A model generated the notes under the pieces. That model saw only the letters and a program-made list of their open reading frames with translations. It searched no databases and had not been told where the DNA came from. Both the position numbers and the translations under genes were made by a program. Below, piece after piece: positions 10,530 through 32,856 of a stretch of DNA of 64,000 nucleotides. The stretch lies in assembly GCA_964384965.1 (NCBI GenBank), contig CAYLLR010000001.1, forward strand, positions 2,568 through 66,567, in the 5' to 3' direction. Within the stretch, counting starts at the first letter, position 1; every line of letters starts with the position of its first letter. This stretch comes from Candidatus Woesearchaeota archaeon. Its GTDB lineage: Archaea; Nanobdellota; Nanobdellia; Pacearchaeales; GW2011-AR1.

Positions 10530-10910
10530 ATGTTTGTATCGGATGAACGAGCAGTTCAAATGAAGAGTTTGGCGTTCTTTCGATTAACTAAATATGGCTA
10601 TAATTTAAAAATGGATGGATATCAAATTGTTGAAAAGGCGAAACGAACCGGAAAAATTGAGAAAGGAACCAACGAGGTAACCAAGGCAATTGAAAGGGGC
10701 GTTGCAAAATTTGTTGTATATGCAAAAGATGTTGAACCTAAAGAGATAGTGGCACATCTTCCTTTGCTGTGCAAGGAGAAGGGGGTTCCCTTTTTGGAAG
10801 TTGATAGCAAGCAAAAATTGGGAATTGCCGTGGGTCTTCCCGTTGCAGCTTCTTCTATTGTGATTGTTGAGCCTGGTGAAGCAAGTCAGGACATCGCCTC
10901 TATAAAGTAA
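10530..10910 (+). CDS. rpl7ae: Ribosomal protein L7Ae. The true start may be an internal Met near 10608.
   Basis: [26 protein letters not shown]...[12 protein letters not shown]. Confidence 0.85.
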
Positions 10911-10933: not shown

Positions 10934-11233
10934 ATGGCAAAAACAGACAAAAATAAAAGAAAGCAACAAGGGAAATCGCAGGCTTCTAAAGGGAGTGATA
11001 AGATTCTTGGAGAGATTGTTCCGGCAGTAGTTCGGGAGCTTCTTGGAAGAACTGGTTTTAGAGGAGAGATTACACAAGTTAAAGTTCTTGTCGAAGAAGG
11101 GAAGGATAAGGGAAGAAGTATGAGAAGAAATGTGAGGGGTGCTGTGAGAGTGGGGGATGTTTTAATGCTTAGAGAAACAGAAATTGAAGCCAGAAGAATT
11201 AAATCAAATATTAAAAAAGGAAATTATAAATAA
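10934..11233 (+). CDS. rps28e: Ribosomal protein S28e.
   Basis: [46 protein letters not shown]. Confidence 0.85.
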
Positions 11234-11234
11234 A

Positions 11235-11489
11235 ATGAAAGAAGAATTTGGGGAACTTGTTAAAATCGTTGAGGATTTTTTTGATAAAGAATACAGTTTG
11301 CCCGGAATTCATCCCGGCTTTATTGAGATTGCAAGTCCAAATAAAGAGTATCTTTTGAAGGGTCAAAAAAAGATTGAAGAAATGAATTTTCCGAATTATG
11401 AAACTCTCTGCACTTTTTTTAAAGAAAGAGATTTAGAATACCACCATGATAGATATAAATTAAAAGTTAGTTTTAAAAGGAAGAATTAA
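11235..11489 (+). CDS. Small hypothetical protein inserted between S28e and L24e. The ORF track gives a longer overlapping version from 11184.
   Basis: ORF only. Tightly packed between rps28e and rpl24e. Confidence 0.35.
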   Translation: MKEEFGELVKIVEDFFDKEYSLPGIHPGFIEIASPNKEYLLKGQKKIEEMNFPNYETLCTFFKERDLEYHHDRYKLKVSFKRKN

Positions 11490-11490
11490 A

Positions 11491-11694
11491 ATGCCTAAAT
11501 GTGTTTATTGCGAAAAAAATTACGAGCTTCCGAGGGGATTGACTTTGGTGATGAAGGATGGTAAAGTTAATTATCTTTGTTCTTCAAAATGTAGAAAAAA
11601 TATGTTAATGGGAAGAAGAAAAGTTAGATGGTTGCCAAAACATTTGAAATTCAATCCTAAAAATAAGAAAAAGGAAAAGAAAAGAAAAAAATAA
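11491..11694 (+). CDS. rpl24e: Ribosomal protein L24e.
   Basis: CVYCEKNYELPRGLTLVMKDGKVNYLCSSKCRKN zinc-ribbon core. Confidence 0.85.
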   Translation: MPKCVYCEKNYELPRGLTLVMKDGKVNYLCSSKCRKNMLMGRRKVRWLPKHLKFNPKNKKKEKKRKK

Positions 11695-12178
11695 TTAAAA
11701 GAGATTTTTGAATGTCCTTTTAAAACATTTTTGTTTTTATTTTATGAAAAGAGATTTAGAGAAAACCAAAAATGAGAATTTTAATAAAGGTAATAGAGTC
11801 ATTTTGGAGCTTTTAAGTTTCTTTAACTAAGATTGAAGGGGTTATCAATTGCAATATAAAAAGCGGGTAAAAGAACCGTATAAGAGTCACTTGAAATTTT
11901 CTTTTATTTTGCACTATGATTGCCAGTTAAAAAATTCTTCTTTTGTTTATAATAAAGGTCATTTTTGTGATTCAAATGTCTTAAATTTTTTTAGGGTTTT
12001 TATGTGGAAGTTTATTACTTTTAAGTTATTCTCGTCGGTAAAGGCTATTTTTGGACATAAAGATTTATAAACTAAATTTGCTTTTTTTGTGTGTAAAAAG
12101 GTCAAATCTTTTTTCAAAAATAGGGCGTAAATTGGTAAAAAATGTCCTGGTTTTTACATAAAATGGTTAAAAAATTAA

Positions 12179-14071
<1,893 letters not shown>

Positions 14072-22879: not shown

Positions 22880-23344
22880 ATGAGGATAAAAATAATTGAA
22901 GAAAAGAAAAATCCCCTTTTTTCTAGAAGAGAGATTCATTTAGAAATTGAATCTGTTGCTGTTCCGAGTCATGAGGAAGTTAAAAATCTTGTTTCAGAAA
23001 AATTTTCCTCTGACCCTAAACTAATAAGGACAAAATTAATAAAAGGGAGATTTGGAATAAATATCTTTGATGTTTTTGTAGATATTTATGATTCTAATGA
23101 AGAGTTTGATAGGGTGGTTAAAAAGACTAAACAGGAATTGGACAAAGAAAAAAGGAGAATTGAGGAGGAATCCAAGGGGGAATCGGAGGCTAAAGATACA
23201 AAAGAAGTTAGTACCGAAGGAGCGGTTAAAGATGAAATAAAAGAAGAGGTTGTTAAAGATGAAATAAAAGAGGAAGAAGGAGTTAAAGAAGTTGAATCCG
23301 TTGATGAGAAAAAAATTAAAGATAATGAAGGGGATAAAAAATAA
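22880..23344 (+). CDS. rps24e: Ribosomal protein S24e with acidic C-terminal extension.
   Basis: [24 protein letters not shown]. Confidence 0.8.
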
Positions 23345-25019: not shown

Positions 25020-25697
25020 ATGGAGAAGAAAATGGTTTCATTATTTTCTGGGGGAAAGGACTCGGTTTATTCAGTTTATTTAGCTAAAAAACGAGGGTAT
25101 AAAATTAGTTGTTTGATTACATTAATTTCTGAGAATAAAGGAAGTTATATGTTTCACACGCCTTCTATTGACAAAACAAAGAAACAAGCAGAGGTGATGG
25201 GCATTCCTTTAATTGTGGAAAAAACGAAAGGTGAAAAAGAAAAGGAATTGGAAGATTTAGAAAGGGCGATTGGAATTGCTCAAAAAGATTATGGTGTTGA
25301 AGGAGTCGTTACCGGGGCCATTCGTTCGGTTTATCAAGCGTCCAGAATTCAAAAAATCTGTGATAAATTGGGATTGGAGTGTTTTAATCCTCTTTGGCAA
25401 AAGGATGAGTTTGAATATTTAAATGAGTTGATTAAAGAAAATTTTAAAATAATTCTTGTGGGGGTTTTCGCATATCCCCTTGATGAATCTTGGTTGTTGA
25501 GGGAGATTGATTCCGAATTTATTAAAGATATTTTTGAGTTGAATAGAAAATATAAAATTCATGTTGCAGGAGAAGGAGGGGAATTTGAAAGTTTTGTTTT
25601 GGATTGTCCCTTATTTAGTCGGGGATTAAAGGTTGTGGGGAGTGAGATAAAAAAAGAAGGGGAGAATTCTCTAAGAATGGAAATAAATGTCCAATGA
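25020..25697 (+). CDS. PP-loop ATP pyrophosphatase of the MJ0570/Dph6 (diphthine-ammonia ligase) family.
   Basis: SGGKDS PP-loop at the N-terminus, EGVVTGAI block. Confidence 0.7.
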   Translation: MEKKMVSLFSGGKDSVYSVYLAKKRGYKISCLITLISENKGSYMFHTPSIDKTKKQAEVMGIPLIVEKTKGEKEKELEDLERAIGIAQKDYGVEGVVTGAIRSVYQASRIQKICDKLGLECFNPLWQKDEFEYLNELIKENFKIILVGVFAYPLDESWLLREIDSEFIKDIFELNRKYKIHVAGEGGEFESFVLDCPLFSRGLKVVGSEIKKEGENSLRMEINVQ

Positions 25698-25755
25698 ACA
25701 AATAGTCTCTAAACAAGAATAATTTTTATAAATGATTTTCTCTTAATTATTACTT

Positions 25756-26577
25756 ATGGATGAAGATATATGGGCAGAGTTTGGGAAAAATTTAGTAGAG
25801 GTTAAAAATTTTGATTATTTTCCCTCGGAATGGACTGGGGGAGATTTTTGTGAATATTTTATTGATTATGCTAAAGAACATAAAAAAGATTTTTGTGAGG
25901 AAAAAGATTTTCCAGTTTTTGAATCGTTATCAAATTTAGAAAAAAAATTTGTTGGTTTCTTAAAAGTACCCTATAAAAAAATTATTTTAAATGGAGATCT
26001 TAGTGAAGCGGATTTTATTTTTGTTAAGTCGGGGAAGATAAGGTATCTTCAAAAAGATTTTGGAGAGCAGGATGCATTAATACAAAAAGTTCAAGTGTTT
26101 TTTGATAAAAATTTTTACCTTGAAAAAAAATATTATTTTGATTTAGGGGAATTTTATAATTCTCAAGAAAGTTTTAATCATTATAATTGGAGAGTTCTTT
26201 TAAATAATTTGGGAAAACCGGATGAAAAATTAATACCCGAAGATTTGGATATTCCCCTTGTATATATTTCCAGAGGCGTTAAGTTTAGTTTGGGAAATGG
26301 TTTTTTTTCAAGATATGTTCAATGGAGCAAACATAATTTTTCCCTATTTTTTTATAAGCAACCCAAAGAAAGAGAAGTGGGATATTTTGTGTTCAATTCT
26401 AAAAAGAATCTCTCCCACATCAAATATATTGATGAAATAAATAAAAATCCTTTTATTTTGAAAGATATTAGTAAAATGCAATCTCTCTTTAAAAATTTGA
26501 AGATTTTTCCAAATAATTTATCTTTTAAACTGCTTAGTGAAATTAAACCGGATAAATTTAAAAAATTATTTTTATAA
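25756..26577 (+). CDS. Uncharacterised protein, paralog 1 of a tandem three-member family.
   Basis: Shares DYFPSEW...EYFIDYA and a central block with the next two ORFs. Confidence 0.45.
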   Translation: MDEDIWAEFGKNLVEVKNFDYFPSEWTGGDFCEYFIDYAKEHKKDFCEEKDFPVFESLSNLEKKFVGFLKVPYKKIILNGDLSEADFIFVKSGKIRYLQKDFGEQDALIQKVQVFFDKNFYLEKKYYFDLGEFYNSQESFNHYNWRVLLNNLGKPDEKLIPEDLDIPLVYISRGVKFSLGNGFFSRYVQWSKHNFSLFFYKQPKEREVGYFVFNSKKNLSHIKYIDEINKNPFILKDISKMQSLFKNLKIFPNNLSFKLLSEIKPDKFKKLFL

Positions 26578-26578
26578 A

Positions 26579-27277
26579 ATGGAATTTGATTTAATGTGTG
26601 AATTTAACAGAAAAATGGAAGAGTCAAGGAAAGGATTTGGATATTTTCCAAAGGAATGGAAATCTCCTTTTTATGTCAAGGAAGAATTTATTGATTTTGC
26701 AAGACATTCTTTAGACGGGGTAGGTCTTGAAAAAATTAATTCTGAATATGGCATAGACAAAGATTCTTATACTGGTTTTATTAGAAATTATTCTAAAATA
26801 GACAATAATTTTGATAAGTTTTATAGTTATTTTAAAGAGGGGGTTTTACGTTATTCTCAGTCTGAATTGAACTCTGGAAAGATAAAAGTAATAAAAACTT
26901 CTTTTTTAAGTGAACCTTTTGAAATTATGAGAACTTATTTTGGTTCTCCTGGTTTAGGAAATCTTTCAAAACCTGTTTTGGGTGTTGTCAAGAGGATTGG
27001 AACATTTAATTTAAGTGAAGATTTTTCTATTAAAATTTTTCAACATGGGTTAGATTCTTTTGATATTTATTTTTTGAAAGTTGGTTCATTTAAACTCGGT
27101 TTTTCTATAAATGAAGGGGATATAAGAGATAGAAAATATCTTTCTTTAATAAAAAATTTCCCACTAATTTTTTATGACAGCGAAGGAATTAAAGAATATT
27201 TTGGGGATATTCTCATTAAGGAAAGAGGAGGGAAAAAAATTAAAATTGAAGATTTTTTAATTGAAAATGGAATTTGA
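26579..27277 (+). CDS. Uncharacterised protein, paralog 2. The ORF track starts at 26537; MEFDLMCEF at 26579 is preferred.
   Basis: MEFDLMCEFNRKMEESRKGFGYFPKEW..EFIDFA. Confidence 0.45.
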   Translation: MEFDLMCEFNRKMEESRKGFGYFPKEWKSPFYVKEEFIDFARHSLDGVGLEKINSEYGIDKDSYTGFIRNYSKIDNNFDKFYSYFKEGVLRYSQSELNSGKIKVIKTSFLSEPFEIMRTYFGSPGLGNLSKPVLGVVKRIGTFNLSEDFSIKIFQHGLDSFDIYFLKVGSFKLGFSINEGDIRDRKYLSLIKNFPLIFYDSEGIKEYFGDILIKERGGKKIKIEDFLIENGI

Positions 27278-27974
27278 TTTAATGTGCTTGTTTTATGACC
27301 GGTTGGAAGAGTCAAAAAAGGGGTTTGATTATTTTCCTAAGGAATGGGAAGAGTTAGCGAATGGGTCTGAATATTTTATCGATTTTGCAATGAATTATTC
27401 AAAGGGGGGAAATAGAAAAATAATTTCAATTAAAAGATATTTAGTTCCAGATTCTTTTAGTGGATTTGTTAAAATCGGAGAAGAAGAATGCGAGAAAGCA
27501 AAGATTAAGAAAGGATTTTATCATATTAAGGAAGGGAAAATAGATTATTTACAACAAGAATTTTTTTTGAAAAATTGTCTTATTAAACAGACCTCCTTTA
27601 TTACAGAACCCTTCTTAATCCGGAGGGTATATATGGGTTTTGAAGGAAATTTTGGAGGGAAAAATTTTCCACTGGTTAGTGTCACAAGGGTGGGTTCTTT
27701 TCCCAAAGAAAAAGAATTATCTATAAGAGTTTTTCAAAATTCAAAAAATCGTTTTAATATTTCTTTTCTCAAGGAATACAAAGAACTTTTCAATTTTAAT
27801 ATTGATTCCAAAAAATATCCTTTTCACAAAGATTTGGTTTCCATAATTCATTCCTCTCCCTTGGTTTTTTCTGATTTTGAAATTCTAAAAACATATTTTA
27901 AAGGAAAAAAATTTGAAATAAAGGAAGGAAAGAAAAGTTTTCTGACCGAATTTGATAAATTTATTCATAAATGA
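27267..27974 (+). CDS. Uncharacterised protein, paralog 3 (alternative start 27261).
   Basis: MEFDLMCLFYDRLEESKKGFDYFPKEW..EYFIDFA. The gene-junction DNA is conserved with the 26579 junction. Confidence 0.45.
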   Translation: MEFDLMCLFYDRLEESKKGFDYFPKEWEELANGSEYFIDFAMNYSKGGNRKIISIKRYLVPDSFSGFVKIGEEECEKAKIKKGFYHIKEGKIDYLQQEFFLKNCLIKQTSFITEPFLIRRVYMGFEGNFGGKNFPLVSVTRVGSFPKEKELSIRVFQNSKNRFNISFLKEYKELFNFNIDSKKYPFHKDLVSIIHSSPLVFSDFEILKTYFKGKKFEIKEGKKSFLTEFDKFIHK

Positions 27975-28003: not shown

Positions 28004-29140
28004 TTATTTTTTAAAAATAGTAATTATTCTTTCTTTTCCCGTTTGTAAATCTTTTATTAAAAATTTCTTTTTTTCTATTTCTTTTTTCCCAACGAAAATC
28101 ACTTTTTTTATTCCATAACTATTTGCATATTCTAAGGCCTTCGACGGTTTTCCAAAAAAAAGACTTACATTGTTCCCACATTTTCTTAATTGTTTTGAAA
28201 TTTCAATTGCTTTTTTATCCTGGTCTAAAGAGACAATTAATGTTTTGTCAATATCAATCAAAATTTTTGAAGCAACCATCAATCTTTCAATACTAAAAGA
28301 TATTCCGGAAGATTCCACCCCTTCAACAAGGTAAGTTCCTCCTCCGCAAATGGTCTCTTTTATTCCTGATTTTACTTCAAAAACATTTCCAGTGTAATAA
28401 GATAGTCCTCTCGCAAGAGCGGGGGAGAATTTTAGTTCGACGCCATAGAATTTTGAGTATTTTTTTAATTCTTCAATTTCAGAGTATGCTTTATATTTTT
28501 TAAAAAATTCTTCTGGCTTTTTTACAATTTCTAAAAGTTTTTCAGCTCCAATTTTTTTTAAATTTTTTTTGACCTCTTTTTCAGGAAGTTTATCAAGTTT
28601 GTCTAATTCTCGTATTGCCTCTTCCTTGTTTTTTATGTTTTGTCCGTCGAGAATTTCATTTAAAAGTTTTCTATTATTTATATAAATAGTGAAATTTATT
28701 TTTAGTGCGTCTAAAATTTCTTTAACAACCGAAAGAATTTCTGCTTGATCTTTTATAGAAGCTCCTACGGTGTCAATATCGCATTGACTAAATTGTCTTA
28801 ACCTGTTTCCGGTAATTGGCTCATCTCGAAATACCGGACCGATTTGAAATCTTTTAAAAGGAAGTTTTTTATTTTTTGCTATTCTTTTCAGTTGAAATGT
28901 AAATTCGTATCTTAAAGCCAATCTTCTTTTTCCCTTATCTCTAAGTTTAAAGATATCTGAAACAGCTTCATCTTCTGAATTTTCGCCTTTAACAAATTCT
29001 TCATATTCAATAATTGGCGTCTCAATTTCTTGAAAATTATATTTTTCAAATGTTTGCTCCGCTATTTTTCGGATGAACGCGAATTTTTCGCCTTCTTTAC
29101 CTATTTTGTCCTTAAAACCCTTTACTGTTTCTGTTTTCAT
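28004..29140 (-). CDS. hisS: Histidyl-tRNA synthetase, class IIa (short form).
   Basis: N-terminal VKGFKD, class II motifs, GGGTY near the C-terminal anticodon-binding domain. tRNA-His lies immediately upstream. Confidence 0.65.
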   Translation of the reverse strand: MKTETVKGFKDKIGKEGEKFAFIRKIAEQTFEKYNFQEIETPIIEYEEFVKGENSEDEAVSDIFKLRDKGKRRLALRYEFTFQLKRIAKNKKLPFKRFQIGPVFRDEPITGNRLRQFSQCDIDTVGASIKDQAEILSVVKEILDALKINFTIYINNRKLLNEILDGQNIKNKEEAIRELDKLDKLPEKEVKKNLKKIGAEKLLEIVKKPEEFFKKYKAYSEIEELKKYSKFYGVELKFSPALARGLSYYTGNVFEVKSGIKETICGGGTYLVEGVESSGISFSIERLMVASKILIDIDKTLIVSLDQDKKAIEISKQLRKCGNNVSLFFGKPSKALEYANSYGIKKVIFVGKKEIEKKKFLIKDLQTGKERIITIFKK

Positions 29141-29151
29141 TTTTTAATATA

Positions 29152-29224
29152 AGCGGAAGGGGGGAGTCGAACCCCCGTTACACGGACCACAACCATGCGT
29201 CATAACCGTTAGACCACAACCGCC
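29152..29224 (-). tRNA. tRNA-His (anticodon GUG) with encoded G-1 and no encoded CCA.
   Basis: On the minus strand: T-arm GGGGG-TTCGACT-CCCCC; anticodon arm CATGG-TTGTGGT-CCGTG (U33, GUG, G37); U8, A14, G18 present. The acceptor stem contains two adjacent U-U mismatches (5-68, 6-67). Confidence 0.6.
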
Positions 29225-30092: not shown

Positions 30093-30497
30093 ATGATTAT
30101 GGATAAAAACTATAGGTTTTTTTTGATTTTGTTTATTGCAATCTTCTTAGTCGTTGGTTTGTTTTTTGTTTTTAATTCAAATTCCCCGAACGATAAAAAA
30201 GGTAAAATTTCGAAAGGTCTAAACGTGAAAGAATTTAATTTAATTGCTAAGCAATTTGAATTCGTTCCGGGGGTTATTAAAGTTAATGAAGGAGATAAGG
30301 TTATTCTTCATATCGAAAGTATCGATGTTGAACACGGGATTGGAATTTTTCAATTTGGGGTGAATAAGATTCTCCCCGTCGGACAAAACGTAACGGTCGA
30401 ATTTGTTGCTAATAAAAAAGGGACTTATTATTTCTTCTGCACCGTTTATTGTGGGGTTGGTCATGGTAATATGAGGGGAAAATTAATTGTAAATTAA
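30093..30497 (+). CDS. Membrane-anchored cupredoxin with a CuA-type (COX2-like) metal-site motif.
   Basis: N-terminal TM. HGIGI... then FFCTVYCGVGHGNM, i.e. C-x3-C-G-x2-H-x2-M spacing. Confidence 0.55.
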   Translation: MIMDKNYRFFLILFIAIFLVVGLFFVFNSNSPNDKKGKISKGLNVKEFNLIAKQFEFVPGVIKVNEGDKVILHIESIDVEHGIGIFQFGVNKILPVGQNVTVEFVANKKGTYYFFCTVYCGVGHGNMRGKLIVN

Positions 30498-30498
30498 A

Positions 30499-30870
30499 AT
30501 GGATTATAAAAAATTATCCCCTCCAATTTTGAGGTACGGAATTGGACTTGTTTTTTTAGTATTCGGAATTTGGCAAATAATCTCTCCGAACTATTGGGCA
30601 GGTTATCTTCCGTCTTACACTTTAAGTTTTGGAGTTTCCGCCAATTTAATGATTTTCTTAAATGGGGTTCTTGATTTATTCATTGGTGGAGGGTTGGTTT
30701 TGGGAATTTATTTGAGGTTTTTTTCAGCTTTGGGAATCTTGAGGATTTTGGTGATTATTTTTTCTTTAGGATGGAACGATGTGACCATTAGAGATATTGG
30801 AATCCTTTTTGCTTTAATTTCAATTTTTTTAAATGGAAAGGATGATTTTTGTTTGAGAGATTTTTTATAG
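30499..30870 (+). CDS. DoxX-family membrane protein.
   Basis: ILRYGIGLVFLVFGIWQI... with four TM segments. Start is 2 nt after the cupredoxin stop. Confidence 0.5.
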   Translation: MDYKKLSPPILRYGIGLVFLVFGIWQIISPNYWAGYLPSYTLSFGVSANLMIFLNGVLDLFIGGGLVLGIYLRFFSALGILRILVIIFSLGWNDVTIRDIGILFALISIFLNGKDDFCLRDFL

Positions 30871-31029: not shown

Positions 31030-32856
31030 TTGGAATGTATGGAAAGTGCTTCAAAATCAATGTTTGGGATTTTAATTTTTTTAACTATTCTTCTTAGCGT
31101 TAGTTTTGTTAGCGCGACTATTGATACGGTTATTATAAATTACAACAGTGATAACATAAACTACAATTATTCAGTTATAGGAAGGAGTTATGACCTTTAT
31201 GTTTCTGGAACAAATCTAACGCAGATAAATGATTCTGAGTTAGAATTTGTAAGGAAATTGGGAGAAAATACATTTCAATATAAATTTACTCCAGGAAATA
31301 TTGCCGGACTAAGGACTTTCGGAACAGGGGAAAATCAATTTAATCTAAGTGTTTTAAGCGAGGCAGACGAACTTTCAAATTCTATTGGGAGTGTCATAAT
31401 AAATATAACCGATGATTCTTCGTCCATTAATGTAAATGATTTTAGTTTGGAAAATAAAATAGTAAGAATGCTTAATGTTAGTGATGTTGCAGATTTGAAT
31501 ATAGATTATCTATTGGATTTGAATCTTTTGTTAAATGGATTGACTTTTGATTTAAATTTTAATAAAGGTTCTGCATATCCACAATATAATAGTGTAAATA
31601 TAAATAGTTCTCCTGCTATAACCGTTATTGAAAACTTAATTAGATTTAATAATTTACCTTCTTATATGACTGTTGATGAGATTAACACTGGTCACTTTGA
31701 ATATTTAAATGAGCTTATTGATGCATATGGTGCAAATATAACTTACCCTTCAAATTCTCGTGTGGTTAAAGAGGGAAACAATTTTGAATTTTTTTCGGAT
31801 GATGGATATTCCACTTTGAATAGAAATGATTTAGAAAATGCTCAAGAGATTATTAATGAGAAAATCAAGTATATTAATCCAGATGAGGTCATTAATGAGC
31901 TTCTTCCATTAGGAAATTTCTCAGAATTCAAAAAATTTGTTGATTTTAATGTTTCTGTTGATTTTGGTAATTTGGAAATTTTAGAAAGTGGAACGTATAA
32001 TCTAACTCTTATCTATACAGATAAGTATGGTAATAACGGGACGATGCCTTTCATTGTGAATTTGAATGTTACGAATGTAGGTTATGAGGAAAGCGTTGAT
32101 TCTAATGGGACGGTAACTTTTACGAGTCCGGTAGTGAACCAGACTTTGGAGAGAATTGAAAATCTCCCCCAAAACATAACAATAACTCCAATTTTGTATG
32201 GGGTAAATAAGCCCTCTGGTTTTGCAGGTCTTCCACAGAATGTTCATTCTTTAAATTTTATGCAAATAAATTCCAGTAATGATAGCAAAACAAATAATGG
32301 TTCATATTCTTTATATTTTAGGATATTGACCTCTTCAATCGATTCAAATTACAAAGATAATGTTAGTTTGTATATTCAAGAAGGAAATAGCTGGATTAAG
32401 TTGCCCACAATATTGATTAATGAAACTTCTGAATATTATATGTATAATTCCACAATCCCCCATTTTAGTAATTACCTTATAGGATATTACCAAGAAAGTG
32501 TTTCTTCAGGAGGGGGATCTTCTTCAGGAGGTTCTTCAGGAGGGGGATCTTCTTCTGTGGGAAGTTCTAGAACTACAAAGCCAATTTCTTTAATTTCAGA
32601 ACCCACCTCTCCTAAAAGCCCAGCTTTTCCTTCGGAGCCTCTCAATTTAAGCAATCCTTCAGATAACCCTTCAGGATTATTTGGAATAACTGGTGCTGCT
32701 ATTGGAGCTCTCTCTTCTCCGGGAGGGATAGGGATAATCCTTTTTGTTTTGATTCTTCTTGCCCTATTAATTATTTTGAGAATAAAGAGAAGGGAAAATA
32801 AAAAGAAATCTTCTAAAAAATTAAATTCTGGTGGTGATGGAATTGGTGAAAAATGA
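31030..32856 (+). CDS. Large sequon-rich surface protein with signal peptide, Gly/Ser linker, Pro-rich segment and C-terminal TM anchor.
   Basis: Hydrophobic N-terminus. (S/G) repeats, PTSPKSPAFPSEP, GIGIILFVLILLALLIILRIKRRENKKK. Confidence 0.55.
   Translation: MECMESASKSMFGILIFLTILLSVSFVSATIDTVIINYNSDNINYNYSVIGRSYDLYVSGTNLTQINDSELEFVRKLGENTFQYKFTPGNIAGLRTFGTGENQFNLSVLSEADELSNSIGSVIINITDDSSSINVNDFSLENKIVRMLNVSDVADLNIDYLLDLNLLLNGLTFDLNFNKGSAYPQYNSVNINSSPAITVIENLIRFNNLPSYMTVDEINTGHFEYLNELIDAYGANITYPSNSRVVKEGNNFEFFSDDGYSTLNRNDLENAQEIINEKIKYINPDEVINELLPLGNFSEFKKFVDFNVSVDFGNLEILESGTYNLTLIYTDKYGNNGTMPFIVNLNVTNVGYEESVDSNGTVTFTSPVVNQTLERIENLPQNITITPILYGVNKPSGFAGLPQNVHSLNFMQINSSNDSKTNNGSYSLYFRILTSSIDSNYKDNVSLYIQEGNSWIKLPTILINETSEYYMYNSTIPHFSNYLIGYYQESVSSGGGSSSGGSSGGGSSSVGSSRTTKPISLISEPTSPKSPAFPSEPLNLSNPSDNPSGLFGITGAAIGALSSPGGIGIILFVLILLALLIILRIKRRENKKKSSKKLNSGGDGIGEK

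Follow-up and report, generated by a model that had tools for sequence, protein, structure and literature searches.

What are three consecutive genes that resemble one another and no described protein, and why have they been kept side by side? DPANN archaea have tiny genomes in which a large share of the genes has no assigned function, and the question is raised here by a stretch of 64,000 nucleotides of contig CAYLLR010000001.1 from a Candidatus Woesearchaeota archaeon (the window, below). The three genes, which we call A, B and C, lie between the gene for a Dph6-like PP-loop ATPase and hisS. An earlier note, made from the DNA letters alone, had described them as tandem paralogs of an uncharacterised protein family. 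We find that the three genes form a genuine unit and are paralogs of ancient origin, and that the family to which they belong is very small, undescribed and soluble, and found mainly in Pacearchaeota-like DPANN archaea of low GC (guanine plus cytosine) content.

Three homologous genes in tandem

All three genes are intact open reading frames (ORFs) on the forward strand. Gene A occupies positions 25756-26577 (273 residues), B occupies 26579-27277 (232 residues, beginning with MEFDLMC one base past the A stop codon) and C occupies 27267-27974 (235 residues, the protein chosen for structure prediction). A mechanical ORF list gave longer versions of B (26537-27277, 246 residues, GTG start) and C (27261-27974, 237 residues, TTG start). 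The upstream starts at 26537 and 27261 were dropped in favor of those at 26579 and 27267 because the orthologues in four other genomes all open at MEFDLMC. The ORF list of the region contains no ORF of at least 60 residues on the opposite strand beneath the three genes.

By BLASTP, B and C are 36% identical (E 1e-35), A and C are 27% identical (E 1e-11) and A and B are 25% identical (E 1e-6), values that put the homology of the three proteins, which spans their whole length, far above chance. The earlier note was thus right about three same-strand tandem paralogs of 273, about 232 and about 235 residues, including the starts that it had estimated, and the FPxEW / EYFIDFA and central sequence blocks that it had picked out are present in the alignments. 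Its figure of 30-40% identity fits B and C, but the two pairs that include A are somewhat lower. Relative to B and C, protein A has a loop insertion of about 30 residues. The computed isoelectric points (pI) of the three proteins are 8.2, 6.8 and 9.1. As the earlier note had it, none of the three proteins has a signal peptide and none has a transmembrane segment (the highest Kyte-Doolittle 19-residue mean is 1.07).

An old triplication and its copy number

The order A-B-C, with one orthologue of each gene, recurs in at least three other metagenomic genomes (loci L001/L002/L009, L003 and L004/L010). In a neighbor-joining tree each of the three genes forms a clade with its orthologues, and the B and C clades are sisters. 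Given these separate clades, the triplication predates the split of these genomes. The proposal of an old triplication kept as an array is therefore borne out by one-to-one orthologues in the same order and by the tree. The A orthologues are 267 residues long in L001 and L004, and that of L003 is cut.

Maintenance of the array holds for the genomes with the triplet but not for all of their relatives, which have one or two copies, or B with a stub of C. In these relatives, too, the family lies 3' of the Dph6-like gene. At that locus L016 has only a B-like and a C-like copy. The same class-I glutamine amidotransferase gene comes after the single copy of L013-15 (P0008) and after the single, A-like copy of L017/18 (P0017). 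In L011 the locus consists of B, the only full-length copy, and a 46-residue stub of C (10690-10830). The tRNA-hisS block of L011 is inverted with respect to the window, and the inversion breakpoint is the site at which C is cut.

Tandem copies are also found apart from the A-B-C array. One pair (P0036 and P0020) lies on contig L9-AmSP6 downstream of ScpA and a Dph6-like gene, and another, composed of a gene of 271 residues and P0038 (hhalign probability 98.65%), lies beside GAPDH in L019 (7133-8831). Judged from these sequences, tandem duplicates of the family arose and persisted independently three times, as A/B/C, as P0036 plus P0020 and as the L019 pair.

Sequence constraint and rate of divergence

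All copies are intact in the four triplet genomes at identities of 32-72%, with no stop codons, and the proportion of nonsynonymous differences (pN) is below that of synonymous differences (pS) in every orthologue pair. The ratios of nonsynonymous to synonymous rates (dN/dS) are 0.19-0.82, values that are upper bounds owing to synonymous sites that are saturated and AT-biased; for this reason dN/dS was set aside as a measure of anything beyond pN < pS.

The family diverges two to three times faster than its neighbor genes. Between L001 and L004 the identities are 72% for A, 61% for B and 39% for C versus 85% for the Dph6-like protein and 90% for ScpA. Between the window and L001 they are 35% (A), 61% (B) and 36% (C) versus 68% and 69% for the same two neighbors. 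Protein B is the slowest of the three, with orthologues 54-61% identical in L001 and L004 and 41% identical in L003, and C is the fastest evolving, with orthologues only 35-46% identical.

Overlapping junctions and a promoter-like element

The earlier note had remarked on conserved junction DNA between the genes. The 23-mer AAAATGGAATTTGATTTAATGTG is indeed repeated exactly, and occurs in the window only at 26576 and 27264, but it is not a spacer: it consists of three bases (AAA) plus the opening codons (MEFDLMC) of B and C, and where B meets C its first 14 bases double as coding sequence for the final residues and stop codon of B. Gene conversion was considered as the source of these identical 5' ends and rejected, as the N-terminal sequences cluster by orthologue and not by genome.

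The B/C overlap, ATGGAATTTGA, is 11 nucleotides long (27267-27277, forward strand) and has a stop/start arrangement of the translational-coupling type, in which the end of B, AAT GGA ATT TGA (N-G-I-stop), contains the start of C, ATG GAA TTT GA. An 11-nucleotide overlap at this junction is present in all four triplet genomes. At the A/B junction the 11-nucleotide overlap is present in L001 and L004, and the window and L003 have a one-nucleotide spacer. The overlapping stop and start codons suggest coupled translation of the genes.

Upstream of A lies a 15-mer, AATAATTTTTATAAA, that resembles a TATA box with a B recognition element (25718-25732, forward strand, 24-38 nucleotides 5' of the A ATG). 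The window, L001 and L004 share it letter for letter and with unchanged spacing to the start codon, and L013 and L011 have close variants, whereas the remainder of the spacer differs between genomes. The window has one exact copy, and 0.8 matches would be expected by chance at one mismatch or fewer. We take it to be a putative archaeal promoter, from which the transcript would have a short leader or none. From the intact copies, the pN < pS values, the conserved TATA-like element and the conserved overlap we infer that A, B and C form a single transcription unit with coupled translation.

A near-copy of the 15-mer, AATTATTTTTATAAA, with one mismatch, is found at 26564-26578 (forward strand), where it makes up the last codons and stop codon of A, with a single base between its end and the B ATG. 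A transcript driven by it, if there were one, would begin inside B. It is probably a chance occurrence in AT-rich DNA.

A very small family

Among 1.84 billion cluster representatives, a profile search picked out 38 proteins at E ≤0.001, of which 11 were at E ≤1e-30; among the 38 are the B and C proteins of the window (P0001 and P0004 of the public collection). A word-indexed search with a 35-sequence profile gave two proteins and added nothing. At NCBI the members are named "hypothetical protein [archaeon]". The close relatives belong to Pacearchaeota-like DPANN archaea, and their contigs are 25-35% GC, and one species-representative genome, that of MAG archaeon CG_2015-01t_29_42, has the family. 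Distant members are found in L007 (an archaeal contig, between GatD and S15), in L006 and L019 (contigs on which the gene is beside GAPDH) and in L005 (a contig with GreA, the guanylate kinase Gmk and PurD, which looks bacterial).

Scans of A, B and C against Pfam, NCBIfam, PADLOC and PHROGs gave no credible match (PADLOC gave 0 matches, and PHROGs none below E 0.2), and a Pfam scan of all 38 aligned members gave only noise. The noise-level matches were one of C to IFN-gamma, below the cut-off of that family, and others to domains of unknown function with a single member matching. Sequence searches of the PDB with 3- and 35-sequence profiles found nothing, and no viral or plasmid relatives were found by a pattern scan of IMG/VR or by tblastn against the INPHARED phages and PLSDB plasmids. 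Hence the description of the family as uncharacterised stands, and within the Pfam, NCBIfam, PADLOC, PHROGs, PDB and BFVD libraries the family is unassignable to a described family or fold. It is new in that sense, and no new kind of system has been demonstrated. Tandem, lineage-restricted hypothetical proteins are a common sight in DPANN genomes, and the present ones reveal no unusual mechanism; the finding is a well-documented unknown and not a new mechanism.

Conserved residues and predicted fold

In the 38-sequence alignment the most conserved positions (C numbering) are W27, G66-F67, G90, Y94 and Q96. The conserved aromatic residues are W27, F67, F111 and Y122, and D39, Y94, Q96, R141 and Q157 make up the polar set. 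The invariant and nearly invariant columns contain neither Cys nor His nor Ser.

Structure prediction and fold comparison had been proposed as checks in the earlier note, and gave a confident model of C and no significant counterpart. An AlphaFold2 run with 35 family sequences gave a model of C (mc1b0099aa659) with a mean predicted local distance difference test score (pLDDT) of 90.4 and a predicted template modeling score of 0.87, the five models being at pLDDT 88-90; this run superseded an earlier run with 5 sequences (pLDDT 68.5). The model begins with an amphipathic helix (residues 3-18) and short helices at 25-28 and 40-45 that carry FPKEW and FIDFA. After a poorly defined loop (45-60) and a strand (66-70) that holds the invariant G66-F67 come eight long antiparallel strands between residues 82 and 180, for an overall meander sheet of eight to nine strands, and the chain ends in helices at 185-211, a hairpin at 215-228 and a final helix. 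Foldseek searches of the PDB and of BFVD (viral models) gave no match at E ≤0.001. A solved structure that bore out the model would probably give the PDB a fold variant that it lacks.

Residue alternation along the modeled strands predicts that the second half of the sheet has one hydrophobic and one polar face and that both faces of the first half are hydrophobic. The latter fits an N-terminal layer that covers one side of the sheet and C-terminal helices that cover the other. Strand periodicity would place Y94, Q96, R120 and Y122 on one face of the first half. Alignment of the two halves of the sheet by hhalign detected no internal duplication.

What the proteins might do

We tentatively favor, as a possibility that falls short of likely, an accessory and non-enzymatic binding or adaptor protein, whose tandem copies would be co-produced and would either join in one assembly or share out the binding partners. 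We favor this reading because the gene arrangement is of the coupled type, tandem copies have been retained repeatedly, there is no catalytic signature (no match to a catalytic family was found in the four hidden Markov model libraries or with the PDB profiles) and there is a weak resemblance to ring-forming binders, those of the MAM33 / p32 / gC1qR family (Pfam MAM33, PF02330; PDB 1p32, 3qv0, 1yqf and 3jv1). Repeated tandem retention is the pattern expected of self-associating proteins turning into paralogous hetero-oligomers. In this scheme A, B and C would be transcribed from the one conserved TATA-like promoter, and coupled translation at the overlaps of stop and start codons would keep the three proteins at similar levels. 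After duplication the copies of this binding protein would form a paralogous hetero-oligomer or split the binding partners. The function would be useful and not essential, such that one to three copies and fast evolution are tolerated.

Several observations weigh against this reading. The copy states in the relatives are A-like only, B only, B plus C and A plus B plus C, and because every copy-number state exists the three proteins are not obligate partners everywhere. Even with no conserved Cys, His or Ser, catalysis could rest on Tyr, Arg, Asp or Gln. Moreover, the structural scores are weak, hhalign of the 35-sequence family profile against human p32 (a sequence verified to be identical to 1p32) gave a probability of 0.16%, and p32 is strongly acidic (pI about 4) whereas the family has pI values of 4.9-9.1 (13 proteins computed).

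A different reading, which we consider unlikely, is that the proteins are independent small-molecule carriers in which the curved sheet forms a helix-grip pocket for a hydrophobic or amphipathic ligand, the copies differing in specificity and forming no complex. By strand periodicity Y94, Q96, R120 and Y122, together with W27, F37 and D39 of the N-terminal layer, could line such a pocket, and the single-copy members indicate that a protomer can work alone. DPANN archaea generally lack lipid synthesis, and host-derived lipids would be one candidate ligand. However, overlapping and coupled genes are more typical of the subunits of a complex, and no lipid-metabolism genes were seen among the neighbors. 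Were the proteins ligand carriers, they would bear on how these symbionts handle scavenged metabolites.

The gene immediately upstream of the array might suggest a role as accessory factor of the Dph6-like ATPase, either as an adaptor for EF-2 or another substrate or as a link to the class-I glutamine amidotransferase. The array does lie between the Dph6-like gene (25020-25697, forward strand; Pfam PF01902, E 1.2e-65) and hisS (28004-29140, reverse strand and convergent with the array; PF13393, tRNA-synt_His, E 6.2e-30), as the earlier note had it. The same Dph6-like gene lies 5' of the family, immediately or nearby, in L001, L004, L011, L013/14, L016, L017 and contig L9-AmSP6, and 3' of the family L004, L014 and L018 have the amidotransferase gene (PF00117, E 1.8e-16). 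Yet the Dph6-like/hisS setting is common only to genomes with Dph6-like proteins 63-71% identical, so the adjacency may be synteny inherited by descent, with no functional link behind it; ScpA and the RpoE'/Rpb7, Spt4, S24e and S27ae genes, the latter four of which lie a few kb upstream of the array and mark the organism as an archaeon, are also syntenic. Beyond these closely related genomes adjacency to PF01902 is not seen, the members in L005, L006, L007 and L019 adjoining GreA/Gmk, GatD/S15 or GAPDH instead. In addition, a conserved promoter-like element precedes the family itself, its genes can be separated from the Dph6-like gene by a GNAT gene or by two genes on the opposite strand, and the copy number of the family varies while the Dph6-like gene stays single. 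We therefore regard a partnership with the ATPase as quite improbable.

Immunity arrays typically hold divergent paralogs in tandem. The genes might accordingly be a fast-evolving conflict set (immunity, antitoxin or anti-defence proteins) that diversifies under pressure from a toxin, a virus or a host, and the rapid divergence of the orthologues relative to their neighbors, the variable copy number and the lack of a catalytic motif would all suit such a role. We nevertheless hold it to be very improbable, as the neighbors are ScpA, the Dph6-like gene, hisS, the amidotransferase gene and GNAT with no toxin, nuclease, Rhs or defence gene nearby, the PADLOC and Pfam scans were negative (Pfam includes immunity-protein families), the searches of IMG/VR, INPHARED and PLSDB found no relatives, the chromosomal position amid housekeeping genes is fixed, and the A, B and C orthologues are one-to-one and not shuffled between strains. 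Finally, that the ORFs arose by chance in an AT-rich genome or are pseudogenes in decay, as the C stub of L011 (decay in one lineage only) and the fairly high if saturation-affected dN/dS values might suggest, is effectively refuted by three genes intact and of conserved length in four genomes at 35-72% identity, by five AlphaFold2 models that agree and by the same motifs across 38 clusters.

Other features of the locus

The tRNA-His(GTG) gene (29151-29224, reverse strand; found by ARAGORN and Rfam) lies 10 nucleotides upstream of hisS, and the synthetase and its cognate tRNA are thus in one block. In L011 the inverted block has both genes on the forward strand (tRNA 11018-11142, hisS 11458-12633). 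The tRNA of L011 is 125 nucleotides long, scored 46.6 bits with the Rfam tRNA model and was missed by ARAGORN; it probably contains an intron.

A protein of 277-295 residues is encoded between ScpA and the Dph6-like gene in L001 (1524-2390), L004 (6597-7481), L011 (8133-8966) and L013 (1686-2573). It has a conserved C-terminus (…LNNLE…SLD.YFPEF…DG.K.DTPKYF), and the L001 copy has no Pfam match. The gene is absent from the window, where the Dph6-like gene comes directly after ScpA. Further upstream, ribosomal protein S24e of the window (22880-23344, forward strand) has a Glu/Lys-rich C-terminal tail of about 60 residues with repeated VKDEIKEE units; the tail of the L011 orthologue (122 residues) is shorter.

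Beyond hisS, a gene at 30093-30497 (forward strand) encodes a membrane-anchored cupredoxin/COX2-like protein of 134 residues with a CuA-type C-x3-C-x3-H-x2-M motif (Pfam Cupredoxin_1, E 2.8e-10; COX2, E 2e-05), which is also present in L011 (14140-14613). A DoxX-family membrane protein (30499-30870, forward strand) is encoded directly after it. The gene at 31030-32856 (forward strand) encodes an Asn/Ser-rich protein of 608 residues with an N-terminal hydrophobic segment, a linker (GGSSSGGSSGGGSSS), a C-terminal transmembrane segment and a basic tail, which looks like a cell-surface protein.

Comparison with known systems

A family that is small, apparently well folded, long kept in duplicate or triplicate and seemingly co-translated is a concrete and tractable target, and three kinds of known system bear comparison with it. 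Old duplicates kept in fixed order and co-expressed, each with its own orthologues, recall paralogous hetero-oligomers. The analogy is one of evolutionary pattern only: the fold is different, and the relatives with one or two copies show that three paralogs are not universally interdependent. The half-barrel binders of hydrophobic ligands (LolA/LolB, UPS1/PRELI, lipocalin-like proteins and VioE) gave structural scores no better than those of porins and other meander sheets, and have no sequence similarity to the family. LolA/LolB and the lipocalins are also exported, whereas the family proteins lack signal peptides.

The p32 proteins offer the most specific comparison. Their chains (four MAM33 members recurring) are among the top non-significant Foldseek matches to the C model. 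p32 consists of an N-terminal helix, seven antiparallel strands and two C-terminal helices, and the C model has the same order of elements, with an N-terminal helix, an antiparallel meander sheet and C-terminal helices. Both families are soluble, lack a catalytic motif and have about 200-270 residues. The p32 proteins bind multiple partners and form ring trimers, which makes three coupled paralogs suggestive. On the other side, only 72-81 of the 235 residues of the C model superpose, at 3.1-4.4 Å, and the family model adds a conserved N-terminal layer of 45 residues, a ninth strand and the C-terminal hairpin. MAM33 did not appear in the Pfam scans of A, B and C at E ≤1 or in that of the 38 aligned members at E ≤0.1. 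MAM33 proteins are eukaryotic and mitochondrial, and a literature search for MAM33 in archaea found nothing relevant. Filing the family under MAM33 was therefore rejected, there being no sequence relationship, a negative hhalign result and no uniform acidity, and the modeled resemblance to p32 is a weak one to be taken as a lead only. There is a slim chance that A, B and C form a 1:1:1 heterotrimeric p32/Mam33-like ring with a chaperone or adaptor role towards basic proteins or RNA of the translation apparatus. Archaea would then have a counterpart of the eukaryotic mitochondrial p32 family, and the tandem pairs that arose independently would have made the same passage from homo- to hetero-oligomer in parallel. 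Should the resemblance reflect real homology, it would provide a prokaryotic relative for a eukaryotic family.

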